The position numbers and the translations under genes were made by a program. Below the pieces are notes generated by a model that ran no database searches, was not told the DNA's origin, and saw only the letters and a list, made by a program, of their open reading frames with translations. This document shows, one piece after another, positions 39,165-45,954 of a stretch of DNA of 64,000 nucleotides (positions within the stretch are counted from its first letter, which is position 1; each line of letters starts with the position of its first letter). The stretch is from Patescibacteria group bacterium (GTDB lineage: Bacteria > Patescibacteriota > Minisyncoccia > Phycocordibacterales > CSBR16-119): NCBI GenBank assembly GCA_030917865.1, contig JAUPTX010000002.1, forward strand, positions 40 to 64,039, in the 5' to 3' direction.

Positions 39165-41390
39165 TTACTTCGCATACCCTTCCGCCTCGGCAAACTTTAT
39201 CGAAAGGAGTTTTGACGCCCCGTCCCCACCGATTGTCACTCCGTAGATCAAATCTGCTCGCGACATCGTCTCTCTGTTATGAGTCACAACGATAAGCTCA
39301 GAATATTTTGAGAGCCTCTCAAGCATATCTCCATATCTTTTTGAGTTAGCTTCGTCGAGTGCCGCATCTGTTTCGTCGAGCACGAGGAACGGTGGCGGGT
39401 TTACCTGACTCATCGCGAAAAGTAGCGCGATAGATGTCAGAGACCTCTCCCCACCAGATAACATCGCCAAATCTTTTACTTTCTTTTGAGGAAGAGACAC
39501 ATTTATGTCTATCCCCTGCTCGAAACTTTTATCTTCTTCAACCACATCAGTCTCATCCATATTCTCGTCTAGCTTTTTTGGCTTTTCTACTACAATAGAA
39601 AGAAATGCCCCTCCGCCACCAAACATCAATTTAAAGAATTCTTCAAACCTCTCGTTTATCTTCGTAAGTCCTGTTTTAAATTCCGTGTCTAGCGTTACCT
39701 TTAGTTCGTCAATTAAAGTTTCTAGACTTTTTATGCTTCCTTCCAAATCCGCTAACTCTTTGATCAAGAAATTATCTCTTTCTGCGGTTTCTTCGTATTC
39801 TTTCAGAACATCAAACCCTCCGCCTGTACCGATATCTTCTAGTTTAATTTTCAATCTCTCGATTTGTCTTCGCAGGTCTTCTTGTTCTTCGTCTCTGAAA
39901 TCAATATTATCGTCACCTTTTTCAAATCCTAAAATATTCTGACCAACCAACACAACAGCCTCTTTCATATTTTCTTCAAACAAAGTTTTTCGTCGCAAGA
40001 AAATTGTATTTTTGTTCTCTATAACTTCCAAAGAAGACGCGACCCTGTTTCGTTCGTTTTCAAGAGTAAATTTTTCTTCGCCTGCTTTGTATCTATCTTC
40101 TTTGTTTTTTGAAATCTCATTTCGAATCAAAGAAACTTTTTCACTCGATTCTTCGATACTCTTGTCTAGCTCTGATATTTTAGAAAGTAATCCTTTTTTG
40201 CTTTCCAAAAGATTATCCAAATCTTCTCTTGAAACTTCGCCTGTTAATTTATACTTTTGTCTAAAACTACTTAAATCGTCTTTTATTTTCTTCAAAGAGG
40301 CTCCGGCAGAAGTTAAATCGCTAGACGACAAAGCGCTGTCGATATCGTCGTGTATTGAATCTATAAAAGAATTAAACTCACTGTTTTTTATTGTTATAGA
40401 CGAATCACCTCTTGAAACTTTCGCTTCTTCAAGCTCCACCAAACCTTCTATTTTACCGAGCGATCTTGAAAGATTTTCTTTTTCAAATCTAAAAGCTCTG
40501 ACTTTTTCTAAAATAGAATCTATCTCAGCGGTTTTTTGGATTTCAAAAGAATTATCATCTTCTATTTTAATATTTGAAATTTTTTGATTAAGAGAATCCA
40601 GTAAATCTTTTAGTCTAGACTTTTCTTTTTTTATAAAAGATTCTTCGTGACCTAAATAGGCATGCTCTCTTTTAAAATACAAAAGATAAAGCGTTGTCAG
40701 TTCCCCACGGAGTTCTTCGCCTTTTTGGATTTTTTCAACTTGCTTTTTAAGGTATCGCAAATGCGGAGCAAGTTCTCTTCTTATACTTTCTATTTCTTTG
40801 ATATTTTCTTTTGTTTTTGAAAGTTTTTTCTCGCTTTCTTTTAATCTGTATTGATATATCTTAAGACCAAGAGCGTCTTCTATCATCCCTCTTCGCTCTT
40901 TTGTGCTAGCTGTCAAAACCCTATCTGCATGACCTTGGGAAATAATATGGTGACCCGAAGAACCAATATTCACAGAAGCTAAAAGCTCAACAATATCACG
41001 AAGTCTGACTTCTGTGTTGTTTATATAGTAACTATTATTTCCGTCCGCAAAAACCTCTCTTTTGATTGAAATTTCGTCGAAGTCTACATTTATAGGAGAA
41101 TCACCACTTGGTAATTTAAAAACTCTATTTTTGTTATCAAAATTTATCGAGACATACGCTCTGTTTTGTTTTTGAACACCAGAAGATCCTTTGAAGATCA
41201 AATCTTTCCCTGATTTCCCTCTTAAAGATTTCATTGACTGCTCACCCAAAACGAAACGAAAAGATTCTACAACGTTTGATTTTCCTGATCCGTTTGGGCC
41301 AACAACACAAGTTAACGGGTGCGTAAAATCCAGCCGGCTCTTTTTGCCGAAAGACTTAAAACCGTTTAGTTCTATAGCTTTTAAATGCAT
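39165..41390 (-). CDS. smc: SMC-family chromosome-segregation ATPase, short form (741 aa)
   Basis: N-terminus LNGFKSFGKK...VVGPNGSGKSNVVESFRFVLGEQS, long coiled coils, and C-terminal LSGGERSLTSIALLFAM...LVLDETDAALD. Much shorter than the canonical roughly 1180-aa SMC. Confidence 0.7.
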   Translation of the reverse strand: MHLKAIELNGFKSFGKKSRLDFTHPLTCVVGPNGSGKSNVVESFRFVLGEQSMKSLRGKSGKDLIFKGSSGVQKQNRAYVSINFDNKNRVFKLPSGDSPINVDFDEISIKREVFADGNNSYYINNTEVRLRDIVELLASVNIGSSGHHIISQGHADRVLTASTKERRGMIEDALGLKIYQYRLKESEKKLSKTKENIKEIESIRRELAPHLRYLKKQVEKIQKGEELRGELTTLYLLYFKREHAYLGHEESFIKKEKSRLKDLLDSLNQKISNIKIEDDNSFEIQKTAEIDSILEKVRAFRFEKENLSRSLGKIEGLVELEEAKVSRGDSSITIKNSEFNSFIDSIHDDIDSALSSSDLTSAGASLKKIKDDLSSFRQKYKLTGEVSREDLDNLLESKKGLLSKISELDKSIEESSEKVSLIRNEISKNKEDRYKAGEEKFTLENERNRVASSLEVIENKNTIFLRRKTLFEENMKEAVVLVGQNILGFEKGDDNIDFRDEEQEDLRRQIERLKIKLEDIGTGGGFDVLKEYEETAERDNFLIKELADLEGSIKSLETLIDELKVTLDTEFKTGLTKINERFEEFFKLMFGGGGAFLSIVVEKPKKLDENMDETDVVEEDKSFEQGIDINVSLPQKKVKDLAMLSGGERSLTSIALLFAMSQVNPPPFLVLDETDAALDEANSKRYGDMLERLSKYSELIVVTHNRETMSRADLIYGVTIGGDGASKLLSIKFAEAEGYAK

Positions 41391-41460: not shown

Positions 41461-41540
41461 GCCCGGCGCCTTTGGCGCCGGCCCTAAAACCGCAAAAATA
41501 AAATAGGTCGATATATCGACCTATTTTATTTTTAAATTTT
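41461..41540. terminator. two tandem palindromic terminators downstream of rnc (CCGGCGCC-TTT-GGCGCCGG and AGGTCGATATATCGACCT with T/A-run flanks)
   Basis: Seen directly at 41461-41484 and 41504-41522. Confidence 0.6.
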
Positions 41541-41580: not shown

Positions 41581-42273
41581 CTATATCCACTTCTTCTTAT
41601 TCAATGCATTTCTTGCAGCATCTTGTTCAGCTTCTTGTTTTGACTTACCTTTCCCTTCTGCCACCTTTTCTTCGCCAAAATATATTCCTATAGTGAAGTT
41701 CTTATCATGATCAGGTCCTGTTTCTGAAATAACTTCATAAGAAGGAGTAAATCCGACAATTTCTTGCGCCTTTTCCTGAACAAAACTTTTAGAATCTATG
41801 TATGTTTTATTTTTTACAATTTTATCAATTCCAGAAAACAAACTATCAGAGATAAATTTTTTAGAATTCTCATATCCTGAATCTAGATATATCGCTCCGA
41901 CTATTGCTTCAAAAGTGTTGGCCAAAATATAACTTCGCGCTTTTCCTGTATCTTTTGACTCCCCTTTTGAGAGTAAAAGATAGTCATTTGCGCCCCATTC
42001 TCTGGCTGCATCAGAAATACTGTTTGTGTTCACGAGCGCTGCTCTGATAGAAGTCAGCTCACCTTCTGGCTTGTTTGGAAATCTTTCGTACAACTCTTCT
42101 GTTGTCACAAGCTCCAAAACCGCGTCTCCCAAAAATTCTAAACGCTCGTTGTGGCCTGTCACAACTCCTTGATTTTCATTTATGTATGACCTATGAGTAA
42201 AAGCCTGTTTTAACAGGTTTATATTTTTAAACTTTATACCAATCTTTTCTTCAAAACTAGAAAAATCTTTCAT
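41581..42273 (-). CDS. rnc: ribonuclease III
   Basis: RNase III signature ERLEFLGDAVLELVTTEELY and a C-terminal dsRBD. Confidence 0.95.
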   Translation of the reverse strand: MKDFSSFEEKIGIKFKNINLLKQAFTHRSYINENQGVVTGHNERLEFLGDAVLELVTTEELYERFPNKPEGELTSIRAALVNTNSISDAAREWGANDYLLLSKGESKDTGKARSYILANTFEAIVGAIYLDSGYENSKKFISDSLFSGIDKIVKNKTYIDSKSFVQEKAQEIVGFTPSYEVISETGPDHDKNFTIGIYFGEEKVAEGKGKSKQEAEQDAARNALNKKKWI

Positions 42274-42349: not shown

Positions 42350-43240
42350 TTATTTTGTAATATACTCAACCGATTGTGCTAAAAGTGGCAAGATATCGTC
42401 GTATGTTTTGATATCTTCAAGCTCTGCGAGCGTAAACCACTTTCCGCCATCAAGACCGCCGTTTGTTTTAACGTTCATTTCCACAAATGGCGACTTAACC
42501 AGGTAATAACTTACCTGTTTACGAATTTTACCTTTTTCTGGGTGAGATGCAACATATTCGTTTTCCCCGAGAAGTTTTACAATTTCCGCATCTAAATCTG
42601 TCTTTTCTTTAATCTCTCTGATAGCGCCCTCTTCTGAAGTTTCGCCGTCTTCTACTCCGCCTTTTGCGAGAGTCCAATATCCAAAAACATCGTGGACAAG
42701 ACCGAAATAGAACTGACCGTCTTTTTCAGAAACGATAACACCCCCTGCCTTTTTCTCGACAGGCATGTCTTCTAGTTTAACTTCTTTTACTTTTTTCTTT
42801 CCACTGTCTTCTTTTCCTGGTTCACCCATCTCTTTATACACAGCGCCGAGTACTCCGTTTACGAATTTGCCGGATTTTTCACCACCGAAAGTTTTCGCGA
42901 GTTCGATCGCTTCGTTAATAGCAACTTTTGGAGGAACTTCGTTTTTGTCTGCGAACAAAAGTTCAGCCAAACCAATACGAAGAACATTTCTATCAACCAT
43001 AGAAATTTTCTCAAGAGGCCACTCTGGTGCAGCGCGAGTGATTATTTCATCAATAGATTCTTGTTTATCGAGAACGATTTTTAGCAAGGTCTCCATGAAA
43101 GAGTCCACAGAAAGACCAGGTCCAAATTCAGAAGTGTTATGAAGAAGTTCTTCTGATAGGTCAGAAGACTTGCGACCGTTAAAGTCCCATTCAAAAAGTG
43201 TTTGTAAAACTATAGAACGTGCTAAATGTCTGTTTGCCAT
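42350..43240 (-). CDS. nusB: transcription antitermination factor NusB fused to a C-terminal NUDIX hydrolase domain
   Basis: Residues 1 to about 140 are NusB-like (ARSIVLQTLFEWDF...VDRNVLRIGLAELLF...FVNGVLGAV). A lysine-rich linker follows, then a Nudix fold with the box GGVEDGETSEEGAIREIKEKTDLD. Confidence 0.8.
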   Translation of the reverse strand: MANRHLARSIVLQTLFEWDFNGRKSSDLSEELLHNTSEFGPGLSVDSFMETLLKIVLDKQESIDEIITRAAPEWPLEKISMVDRNVLRIGLAELLFADKNEVPPKVAINEAIELAKTFGGEKSGKFVNGVLGAVYKEMGEPGKEDSGKKKVKEVKLEDMPVEKKAGGVIVSEKDGQFYFGLVHDVFGYWTLAKGGVEDGETSEEGAIREIKEKTDLDAEIVKLLGENEYVASHPEKGKIRKQVSYYLVKSPFVEMNVKTNGGLDGGKWFTLAELEDIKTYDDILPLLAQSVEYITK

Positions 43241-45346: not shown

Positions 45347-45408
45347 ATATAGGGCGCCTTCGGCGCCCTATATTTTATTTAAAAGCCCTACCAACTGGTA
45401 GGGCTTTT
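45347..45408. terminator. two adjacent GC hairpin terminators (TATAGGGCGCC-TTCG-GGCGCCCTATA + T-run for thrS; AAAAGCCCTACCA-ACTG-GTAGGGCTTTT, bidirectional, for the murD fragment)
   Basis: Seen directly at 45348-45380 and 45381-45408. Confidence 0.7.
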
Positions 45409-45954
45409 GCACGCAAGACGCGCCACAGAACTTCTGAACTCCCGAGATCTATGCTCATAGTTCGTAAAAAGGTCAAAACTTGCACACGCTGGAGAAAGCA
45501 GAACTGTATACCCGGGCTGAGCAAGCTGCATTGCAGACATAACAGCTTCGTCCATTAAAAGACAGTCCGAGGTAACGGGAACGTCTTGAGAGAAAAAATT
45601 CCTCAGACGATCGTTTACCCTGCCCAAGGCAACGATTGCTTTTACCTTCTTTTCGACAGCAGACAGAAGCACCGAATAGTTATTTCCCTTATCGACGCCG
45701 CCAGCAATCCAAATTATTGGACCACCAGTTTCTTCTAGTGCCCACCAAGCAGAATTCACATTGGTTGAAAAAGAATCATCTACAAAACTGATACCTTCGA
45801 ATAGCCCAACTTTTAGCAGACGATAGTCGAGGACCGGACGAAAACCTTCTCGTATTTCGTCTTTAGTTGGAGAAATTCTACCCTCAATACCAACACCCTC
45901 TCTCTTGTGCCCAGCAATGTTTCCGTTTACTGCGATCTCTATTATGTGTCTCAT
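45388..45954 (-). pseudogene. murD: GC-rich gene fragment matching only the C-terminal domain of UDP-N-acetylmuramoylalanine--D-glutamate ligase (MurD); truncated remnant or captured fragment
   Basis: VDDSFSTNVNSAWWALEE...IIWIAGGVDKGNNYSVL...LSPACASFDLFTNYEHRSREF aligns to the MurD C-terminal domain. The ATP-binding and N-terminal domains are absent (188 aa versus about 440). GC is visibly higher than in neighbouring genes. Confidence 0.55.

Follow-up and report, generated by a model that had tools for sequence, protein, structure and literature searches.

Few bacterial transcription factors are as conserved as NusB, which is regarded as a protein of one domain; the question arises why a nusB gene of a Patescibacteria genome continues into a Nudix-fold domain and of what this domain might do there. 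The gene is found on the minus strand of the window, i.e., the whole 64,000-nucleotide stretch of DNA analyzed here, as one intact open reading frame (42350..43240) with an ATG start, encoding 296 amino acids followed by a stop codon. The database annotation of its product is plain NusB, and our literature search for NusB with Nudix, or for NusB with Patescibacteria, found nothing relevant among open-access papers. The first-pass annotation had described a normal NusB continuing through a Lys-rich linker into a complete Nudix fold, and this layout was borne out by Pfam, AF2, and Foldseek. Both Pfam matches were far above their gathering cut-offs: NusB (PF01029) covered aa 7-136 (E=6.8e-34) and NUDIX (PF00293) covered aa 167-278 (E=3.5e-15), so that the C-terminal region passed the Nudix profile search. 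The AF2 model of the fusion protein (mean pLDDT 84) comprised two well-folded domains and a disordered segment, aa 141-154, between them.

The N-terminal part (aa 1-138; 42827..43240, minus strand) is a bona fide, standard NusB, as indicated by Pfam, TIGR01951, Foldseek, and dN/dS. The protein scored 128.9 bits against the NCBIfam nusB equivalog model TIGR01951 (cut-off, 88.35), and the predicted fold has seven helices within aa 2-138 with pLDDT of about 80-95. By Foldseek, this half resembled Aquifex NusB 3r2c/3r2d (target TM-score, 0.86) and Mycobacterium tuberculosis NusB (TM-score, 0.84). It shares its equivalog family and fold with the canonical NusB of Escherichia coli and of Aquifex aeolicus (NusB-NusE-boxA complex 3r2c), and its gene takes the place that plain nusB has in related Patescibacteria. 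Canonical NusB stands alone at about 140 aa, whereas the fusion continues into a charged tether of 25 aa and a Nudix domain of 133 aa. The orthologous locus beside rnc and the invariant motifs VPxKVAINEAIELAKxFG and KFVNGVL allow us to predict NusE (S10) and boxA binding and a role in rRNA antitermination and processing. The other well-known fusion of a NusB fold with an rRNA-acting enzyme, the 16S rRNA m5C methyltransferase RsmB/Sun, joins a NusB-like paralogue to a methyltransferase, whereas here a true NusB is joined to a Nudix domain. An RsmB identity was rejected: the match reached 43.8 bits for a cut-off of 319 and covered the NusB part alone, and the C-terminal domain is not a methyltransferase.

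That such an architecture arises from an assembly, frameshift, or gene-calling error is extremely improbable. The survey of homologues retrieved the C-terminal extension in all of the best 120 (NCBI, JGI, ENA, and Logan assemblies), with equal length and both Pfam domains, in 46 of the 80 GTDB species loci (33 were unfused), and in 77 of the 80 metagenome contigs. These extensions are all fused in frame. Because independent assemblies and metagenome contigs in the hundreds share an identical architecture, and dN/dS is low in both halves, we set the artefact explanation aside. An exact-sequence look-up of the fusion protein among contigs gave no match. In the sets examined, the fusion was found in Patescibacteria, in Paceibacteria/"Parcubacteria" lineages, and always occupied the rpmF-nusB-rnc-smc locus, the GTDB loci as a whole reading rpmF-nusB(-nudix)-rnc-smc. 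In the window, rpmF, for ribosomal protein L32 (43304..43498, minus strand; PF01783, E=4e-12), is the conserved neighbor immediately upstream, and rnc, for an RNase III with a dsRBD by Pfam (41581..42273, minus strand), lies immediately downstream; rnc adjoins nusB in 74 of the 77 fused metagenome loci and, among the GTDB loci, in almost all of both the fused and the unfused ones. The fusion is still in frame where Nudix-domain identity drops to about 30%, over at least 53 clusters at 50% identity, and no split nusB and nudix gene pair was found among the 160 loci, besides one frameshifted pseudogene-like locus per set (L044 and L091). We propose that an orthologous nusB gained its C-terminal Nudix domain, from an Ap(n)A-hydrolase-type enzyme, in one large Patescibacteria sublineage; a neighbor-joining tree of the 140-column NusB domain, which is poorly resolved, implied five changes between the fused and unfused states.

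The flexible tether between the two domains (aa 139-163; 42752..42826, minus strand), delimited by translation, low pLDDT, and dN/dS, is the Lys-rich linker GEPGKEDSGKKKVKEVKLEDMPVEK. In it, a stretch rich in Lys and Glu comes after a conserved GEPGK[DE] motif, and pLDDT falls below 50 across aa 141-154. The GEPGKD motif and a charged tail also end NusB in Patescibacteria without the Nudix domain, which argues that the tail is older than the fusion; the Nudix domain would thus have been added onto a Lys-rich NusB tail already in existence.

By its closest sequence and structure neighbors, the Nudix domain (an alpha/beta/alpha fold; aa 164-296; 42353..42751, minus strand), delimited by Pfam, PDB sequence matches, Foldseek, and dN/dS, belongs with the ApnA (dinucleoside-polyphosphate) hydrolases. 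Its top PDB sequence matches were the T. thermophilus Ap6A hydrolase Ndx1 1vc8 (E=3e-10, together with 1vc9), the Aquifex Ap4A hydrolase 3i7u (E=1.5e-9), and 1kt9, and the ApnA-hydrolase matches spanned E=3e-10 to 9e-6. The top Foldseek matches of the C-terminal half (pLDDT mostly 84-94 in this domain) were 3i7u, 1vc8, 9cxx, and 1ktg, with target TM-scores of 0.81-0.84 to solved Nudix Ap4A/Ap6A hydrolases and of 0.74-0.84 over ApnA hydrolases overall. The best sequence and fold matches altogether comprised Ndx1 1vc8, Aquifex 3i7u, C. elegans and human NUDT2, and M. tuberculosis Rv2985; BdRppH and B. subtilis RppH came lower in the match lists, and the NrtR Nudix domain was among the fold matches. 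In the profile search of the fusion protein, none of the MutT, NudC, RppH, and (p)ppGpp-related models reached its cut-off. An RppH identity was rejected, as the NCBIfam models PRK00714 and TIGR02705 gave 19-24 bits for cut-offs of 116-259. The coupling to (p)ppGpp, NAD-cap, or dinucleotide turnover put forward in the first-pass annotation is supported only in part: dinucleotides agree with the ApnA neighbors, RppH and NAD-diphosphatase models scored far below their cut-offs, and no result pointed to (p)ppGpp. A likeness to Dcp2, which also combines a helical N-domain with a Nudix domain, was treated as superficial (whole-model Foldseek rmsd of 12-14 A).

Compared with these ApnA hydrolases, the fusion differs by the attached NusB and by several positions at the putative active site. 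The reference consensus of the Nudix box is GX5EX7REUXEEXGU; the box of the fusion protein, GGVEDGETSEEGAIREIKEKTDL (aa 194-216; 42593..42661, minus strand), reads G194-x5-E200-x7-R208-E209-I-K-E212-K213-T-D215-L in translation. The box earlier described as near-canonical is therefore present as quoted but is not a complete Nudix box, because Lys replaces the last Glu (K213) and Asp replaces the Gly (D215). Aligning the catalytic Glu residues placed E200, E209, and E212 as expected, with K213 (codon at 42602..42604, minus strand) in place of the second Glu of the "EE" pair; together with R208, three of the four residues of the catalytic quartet (R208, E209, E212, E213; R-E..E-E) are kept, as is E200. 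In the PDB alignment, the column of K213 is E50 in Ndx1 1vc8 and Gln in its E50Q mutant, 1vc9, which was solved with ATP-Mg. E209 is taken here to be the counterpart of E58 in human NUDT2, mutated to Ala in 4ijx. Among the 120 closest homologues, position 213 is Glu in 63 and Lys in 57. Divalent-cation-dependent pyrophosphohydrolase activity is probably weak or absent in the E213K clade, judging from these residues. Residual or altered hydrolase activity of the fusion protein may nevertheless persist, as R208, E209, E212, and E200 are kept and some Nudix enzymes tolerate box deviations.

The residues expected to contact a ligand are better preserved than the box. The domain shares with ApnA hydrolases the motif W-T-x-x-K-G-[GH], and its Y280 (98-100% conserved) aligns with C. 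elegans Tyr121, which presumably stacks on adenine. The ligand contacts of human Ap4A hydrolase include K42, Y82, K89, and a stacking Tyr, of which K42 and K89 contact the P1 phosphate (PMC4734340); in the alignment with such distant enzymes (25-29% identity), K193 (conserved at 99-100%) and K241 (88-96%) fall on the phosphate-contacting lysines. The adenine-stacking Tyr/Phe sits 17 residues after the Nudix box (PMC2425470), whereas the corresponding position 233 of the fusion is a His, as in 56-85% of the family.

Across the fused family as a whole, the catalytic quartet is not conserved. It is intact in 10/52 fused representatives of 50%-identity clusters, in 21/46 fused GTDB species, and in 67/211 pooled fused proteins (32%), i.e., in 19-46% of fused lineages compared to 39/41 true stand-alone relatives (95%; Fisher p=2e-14 and 4e-7, for sequence counts that are phylogenetically non-independent). 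The stand-alone control set excludes three apparently free-standing close versions (P0124, P0127, and P0134), which start at an internal Met of the linker and whose nearest metagenome loci are in-frame fusions, identifying them as gene-calling fragments; the intact share is 95% without them and 73% with them. The fused proteins display 40 different quartet states, and a neighbor-joining tree, which probably inflates the number of independent losses, required at least 37 transitions between intact and degenerate states. Glu at position 209 is found in 38% of fused and 84% of solo domains. Lineages with two or more quartet changes nonetheless retain W189 (1.00), K193 (1.00), Y229 (0.95), K241 (0.88), W268 (0.98), and Y280 (0.98), compared to only 0.60 for the accessory acidic residues E200 and E228. 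Purifying selection on the Nudix domain is strong and matches that on NusB, with dN/dS values relative to locus L001 of 0.079 for Nudix, 0.063 for NusB, and 0.38 for the linker. Catalysis thus looks dispensable in the fused family.

We propose, with a probability of about 0.5, that the Nudix domain is a NusB-tethered module binding nucleotide polyphosphates or RNA 5' ends and catalytic only in some lineages. A binding role rather than an ordinary enzymatic one is suggested by the strong conservation of a domain whose catalytic residues are often lost, and the persistence of residues at phosphate- and adenine-binding positions where the box is degenerate suggests that the ligand pocket is kept. 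The data agree more closely with a binding, sensor, or tether role than with a strict need for turnover. What is conserved would be ligand binding, with hydrolysis optional, and the domain would bind a purine nucleoside polyphosphate: a free alarmone of the ApnA/NTP type, or else the nascent pre-rRNA leader at its 5'-ppp or NpnN-capped end. Nudix domains that bind without hydrolyzing have precedents, e.g., CFIm25 with Ap4A (PMC2425470) and TRPM2 NUDT9-H (PMC4974056; reviewed in PMC5389931), and RNA 5' ends are also substrates of ApnA-type Nudix enzymes (PMC8616924; bioRxiv 10.1101/563817). Held beside the NusB-NusE-boxA RNA complex on RNA polymerase, the domain could either let nucleotide status tune how the rRNA antitermination/processing complex assembles or provide a second tether for the leader, aiding its processing by RNase III, an enzyme functionally linked to NusB (PMC4807359; bioRxiv 10.64898/2026.03.17.712431). 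Lineages with an intact box may still hydrolyze the ligand; hydrolysis may indeed have been the original function and in places still be so, as a third to half of the fused lineages have a fully canonical box. A far more specific form of this model, which we consider unlikely in its entirety, would make the domain a reader, with weak or lost hydrolysis, of dinucleoside polyphosphates or of the 5'-ppp/NpnN-capped pre-rRNA leader, so that assembly of the CPR rRNA antitermination/RNase III-processing complex would respond directly to an alarmone of the Ap(n)A type or to the status of the 5' end; the domain might also assume the complex-stabilizing role of SuhB.

An active pyrophosphohydrolase linked to NusB, as the first-pass annotation envisaged, could be an ApnA hydrolase, an RppH-like remover of 5'-ppp, or an NpnN decapper. 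Tethered to the antitermination complex, it would work where the leader of the nascent rRNA has its 5' end or clear dinucleoside polyphosphates in the vicinity of RNA polymerase, and E200, E209, E212, E228, and D264 would keep the E213K variant active. The ApnA-type domain is confirmed, active ApnA hydrolases make up all of its nearest relatives in sequence and structure, the three remaining quartet residues and E200 of the fusion protein would be at its service, and so would the canonical quartet of those fused lineages that keep it. Trimming of PPP-RNA by NUDT2-type enzymes (PMC8616924), the existence of bacterial NpnN caps (bioRxiv 10.1101/563817), and the adjacent rnc, which ties the locus to rRNA processing, point in the same direction. 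However, the loss of the quartet in most fused lineages, in so many different ways, while the domain is kept would be unexpected if catalysis were the selected function; moreover, K213 occupies the very Glu changed in the E50Q structure of Ndx1, and the RppH models scored far too low. Obligatory turnover is thus not upheld, given K213 and the contrast between fused and stand-alone relatives, and we regard an active hydrolase as a somewhat doubtful account of the family.

Two accounts without enzymatic coupling appear less probable again. During genome streamlining, a housekeeping Nudix gene could have fused with nusB, the two domains working independently and uncoupled to transcription. Reduced genomes often contain fused genes, and besides the disordered linker the AF2 model has no confident interface between the domains (pTM 0.51), so that it predicts no structural coupling of the Nudix domain to the NusB surface. 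Such a neutral fusion is nonetheless improbable: the in-frame state has been kept over deep divergence, split pairs are absent from the loci apart from the two frameshifted ones, and the catalytic residues of a housekeeping enzyme would be expected to persist, as they do in the free-standing relatives but not in the fused ones. The domain could instead be a protein-protein interaction module that stabilizes the CPR antitermination complex without any nucleotide ligand. The dispensable catalytic residues and the conserved positions specific to fused proteins (H183, F186, A231, L263, F269, and D282) would suit such a role, for which a precedent exists in E. coli SuhB, an enzyme-fold protein that joins the rrnTAC in a NusB-dependent manner and stabilizes it (PMC4807359; bioRxiv 10.64898/2026.03.17.712431). 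The enzymatic (IMPase) activity of SuhB is not considered its principal function (PMC4807359); SuhB is, however, a separate polypeptide with an inositol monophosphatase fold, and the analogy is conceptual only. Moreover, the fused-specific positions are mostly hydrophobic and hence probably in the core rather than at the surface, and the best-conserved residues lie at positions that contact the ligand and are shared with active ApnA hydrolases; this speaks for preservation of the ligand pocket and makes a ligand-free module quite improbable.

The proposed binding module has its nearest functional parallels in CFIm25/NUDT21, TRPM2 NUDT9-H, and the NrtR Nudix domain, degenerate-box folds that bind nucleotides without hydrolysis within other machines (PMC2425470, PMC4974056), CFIm25 being part of an RNA-processing factor and binding Ap4A (PMC2425470). 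These binders belong to other subfamilies with other partners, none tied to NusB or to bacterial transcription elongation, and their loss of catalytic residues is fixed, whereas it is patchy over lineages in the NusB-fused family. Here, in a very large lineage of tiny uncultured bacteria, a domain of the ApnA-hydrolase type has stayed with a NusB orthologue over deep divergence, and this domain evolves like a pseudoenzyme in the making. This offers a testable link from nucleotide/alarmone chemistry, or that of RNA 5' ends, to how rRNA is transcribed and processed, for which orthologues with intact and degenerate boxes form a natural series to separate binding from catalysis. It also bears on what Ap4A-type molecules act on and on how ribosome production is controlled in host-dependent CPR bacteria with minimal nucleotide metabolism. 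If the reader role were true, this would be the first direct protein target joining ApnA signaling to rRNA transcription; if the domain were a mere active housekeeping hydrolase on a string, it would be a curiosity of genome streamlining.

The 64-kb window contains no second NusB or Nudix gene. A GC-rich terminator-like hairpin with eight G-C pairs and a T-tract (41463..41481, minus strand) follows rnc, and no comparable site occurs between nusB::nudix and rnc; this hairpin is the probable end of an rpmF-nusB::nudix-rnc transcription unit.

The gene nusB::nudix (42350-43240, minus strand) is a single ORF with an ATG start encoding 296 aa, in which Pfam places a NusB domain at aa 7-136 (E=6.8e-34) and a NUDIX domain at aa 167-278 (E=3.5e-15). 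In NCBIfam, the protein scores 128.9 bits against the cut-off of 88.35 for the nusB equivalog TIGR01951 and stays far below cut-off for all Nudix equivalogs (RppH, MutT, NudC, and others); RppH identity of the C-terminal half was rejected by these criteria. The AlphaFold2 model, obtained with 50 homologues as input (mean pLDDT, 84.4), comprises an N-terminal domain of seven helices and a C-terminal beta-grasp Nudix domain, with a disordered segment at aa 141-154 in between (pLDDT <50); the pTM is just 0.51, and therefore no fixed inter-domain orientation is predicted. Foldseek searches of the PDB matched the N-terminal half to Aquifex NusB in the NusB-NusE-boxA complex (3r2c, 0.86) and gave among the best matches of the Nudix half the Thermus thermophilus Ap6A hydrolase Ndx1 (1vc8; target TM-score, 0.84), the Aquifex Ap4A hydrolase 3i7u (0.81), M. 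tuberculosis Rv2985, M. smegmatis MutT1, and the C. elegans and human Ap4A hydrolases, BdRppH being a weaker match. A PDB sequence search ranked the Nudix-half relatives identically (Ndx1, E=3e-10; 3i7u, E=1.5e-9; 1kt9, E=9e-6). Altogether, these searches and the model bear out the NusB-Nudix architecture claimed by the first-pass annotation: the N-terminal half is a NusB by sequence, fold, and locus, and the C-terminal half belongs to the Nudix fold superfamily, nearest to the ApnA-hydrolase subfamily. Among the substrates that the annotation had envisaged, dinucleotides were the right neighbourhood, and no evidence was found for (p)ppGpp or NAD caps.

An assembly or frameshift artefact, a concern raised at first reading, is refuted by the recurrence of the same fusion in NCBI, JGI, ENA, Logan, GTDB, and metagenome sequences. 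The best 120 matches of the window protein in a 5.8-billion-protein collection (NCBI, JGI, ENA, and Logan assemblies) all carry both Pfam domains, with 295-334 aa and query coverage of 92-100%; names, where given, are only "transcription antitermination factor NusB," and the named hosts are Patescibacteria, Paceibacterota, Nomurabacteria, or Pacebacteria MAGs. Among the best 80 loci of GTDB species representatives, 46 encode the in-frame fusion (titles including Nomura-, Kaiser-, Zambryski-, Ryan-, Niyogi-, and Komeilibacteria, "Paceibacterota," and "Parcubacteria"), 33 encode plain NusB (Azam-, Yanofsky-, Moran-, Wildermuth-, Falkow-, Kerfeld-, Staskawicz-, and Nealsonbacteria, among others), and 1 is frameshifted. 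On JGI/ENA metagenome contigs, the fusion is in frame at 77/80 loci, 2 being cut by the contig end and 1 frameshifted. The Nudix half alone gave 148 matches below 1e-10 among 1.84 billion 50%-identity cluster representatives; 53 of the best 150 also contain a NusB domain, at Nudix identities down to about 30%. Three apparently free-standing close relatives (P0124, P0127, and P0134) start at an internal linker Met (MPVE..., MGEP...) and are gene-calling fragments, because the nearest contigs (loci L081-L085) encode in-frame fusions, a warning for architecture counts based on predicted proteins. At two loci, L044 (a GTDB species genome) and L091 (a metagenome contig), frameshifts or stops split the gene into several ORFs; errors of sequencing at low contig coverage could explain this, as could true pseudogenisation. 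In the predicted protein P0210 (577 aa), a distant relative, some 400 additional N-terminal residues precede the Nudix domain and its NusB-like segment.

The order rpmF (L32)-nusB-rnc (RNase III)-smc, preceded by a divergent thrS, is that of the window and of essentially all related loci with or without Nudix on NusB, rnc directly following nusB in unfused lineages. This order being common to fused and unfused loci, nusB::nudix is an orthologue of ordinary nusB. No second NusB or Nudix gene was seen within the 64-kb window, and no Nudix gene within 6 kb of nusB in related unfused loci. The linker (42752-42826, minus strand) consists of a GEPGK[DE] motif and a Lys/Glu-rich stretch; in many unfused Patescibacteria (loci L046-L062), NusB ends in this motif plus 20-50 aa of low-complexity sequence rich in Lys and Glu. 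By this comparison, the charged tail predates the fusion, the Nudix domain having been appended to what is now the linker. A GC-rich terminator-like hairpin of 8 G-C pairs lies 3' of rnc (41481-41463, minus strand), where an AT-rich palindrome of 18 pairs (41494-41533, plus strand) adjoins it between rnc and smc; no terminator-like hairpin was found between nusB::nudix and rnc in the window, a placement compatible with an rpmF-nusB::nudix-rnc transcription unit. The pairing with rnc is biologically sensible, as pre-rRNA processing by RNase III is promoted in E. coli by the Nus factors, which tether boxA to RNA polymerase (PMC4807359; bioRxiv 10.64898/2026.03.17.712431).

The Nudix box reads G194-x5-E200-x7-R208-E209-I-K-E212-K213-T-D215-L. 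Compared with GX5EX7REUXEEXGU, the "near-canonical" description holds for G194, E200, R208, E209, and E212, but Lys replaces the final Glu of the "EE" pair and Asp the Gly that follows, and the C-terminal half falls outside the strict Nudix-box definition. K213 aligns with Glu50 of Ndx1, the very column at which 1vc9, the E50Q mutant-Mg2+-ATP complex, departs from 1vc8; of the 120 closest homologues, 63 have E and 57 have K at position 213. The catalytic quartet R208/E209/E212/E213 is intact in 10/52 (19%) fused 50%-identity cluster representatives, 21/46 (46%) fused GTDB species, and 67/211 (32%) pooled fused sequences, versus 39/41 (95%) true stand-alone relatives, counted after removal of 8 fragments of fused genes (Fisher p, 2e-14 and 4e-7, ignoring phylogenetic non-independence). 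Obligatory catalysis by the fused domain is doubtful. In the pooled fused sequences, the quartet takes 40 different states. E209, the Glu of "RE," is kept in 38% of fused versus 84% of solo domains; by our numbering, it is equivalent to E58 of human NUDT2, mutated in 4ijx. A neighbour-joining tree that leaves out the quartet columns requires at least 37 changes between intact and degenerate states, a count probably inflated by tree error, but the changes are clearly many and independent.

Between the window and locus L001, both with the quartet REEK (dS about 0.7), dN/dS is 0.079 for Nudix, compared with 0.063 for NusB and 0.38 for the fast-evolving linker, and the Nudix domain is therefore not decaying. 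In lineages with at least two quartet changes, conservation of the accessory acidic residues drops (E200 and E228 to 0.60, D264 to 0.70), and values of at least 0.88 are kept by W189, T190, K193, Y229, P234, G237, K241, G262, W268, Y280, and D282. Y280 aligns to Tyr121 of the C. elegans Ap4A hydrolase, presumably the second stacking aromatic. Mapped by alignment to this enzyme and by contacts published for its human and Plasmodium counterparts (PMC4734340), K193 aligns to the P1-phosphate lysine (human K42) and K241 to human K89; H233, 17 residues past the box, occupies the position of the stacking Tyr (PMC2425470). The alignments demonstrate, at the sequence level, that the catalytic residues came under relaxed constraint specifically upon fusion; the pattern is one of an optional catalytic apparatus and a retained nucleotide pocket.

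The protein is thus a genuine NusB with a flexibly tethered ApnA-hydrolase-type fold under strong purifying selection. We propose, with a probability of about 0.5, that this fold has been selected to bind a purine nucleoside polyphosphate beside the NusB-NusE-boxA complex. Candidate ligands are a free alarmone of the ApnA/NTP-like type and the 5' end of the nascent leader, either 5'-ppp or NpnN-capped; NUDT2-type enzymes are known to bind such RNA ends and to act on them (PMC8616924; bioRxiv 10.1101/563817). Binding could affect how the antitermination/processing complex assembles or provide an extra tether for the leader. Hydrolysis may be retained in intact-box lineages and is probably poor or absent in the window E213K/G215D protein. 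Binding without cleavage has precedents in the RNA-processing factor CFIm25, whose Nudix fold binds Ap4A (Kd, about 2.4 uM) without hydrolysis (PMC2425470), and in the NUDT9-H domain of TRPM2 (PMC4974056); further cases are reviewed in PMC5389931, a review from which NusB is absent. An active tethered hydrolase or decapper would agree with this action of NUDT2-type enzymes on RNA ends and with the intact boxes, but the eroded quartets make it rather unlikely. A functionally neutral fusion is improbable, as a housekeeping enzyme would be expected to keep its catalytic residues. A ligand-independent, SuhB-like structural subunit seems slightly less probable still given the retained contacts.

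The open-access literature search found no description of a NusB-Nudix protein; its novelty is the undescribed, lineage-wide combination of two known domains with an unusual evolutionary signature. To our knowledge, the sole familiar NusB-fold fusion is RsmB, which differs in carrying a methyltransferase domain on the NusB fold; the nusB::nudix product is not an RsmB.

Downstream of rnc, the SMC-like protein (39165-41390, minus strand) has just 741 aa, with Pfam SMC_N at residues 3-724 and no Pfam match to SMC_hinge, and could be an SMC that is shortened or lacks the hinge; most related Patescibacteria loci have a homologue after rnc. A 188-aa ORF (45388-45954, minus strand) with a subthreshold Mur_ligase_C match (26.0 bits; cut-off, 28.4) could encode a Mur ligase that is truncated or has diverged strongly.
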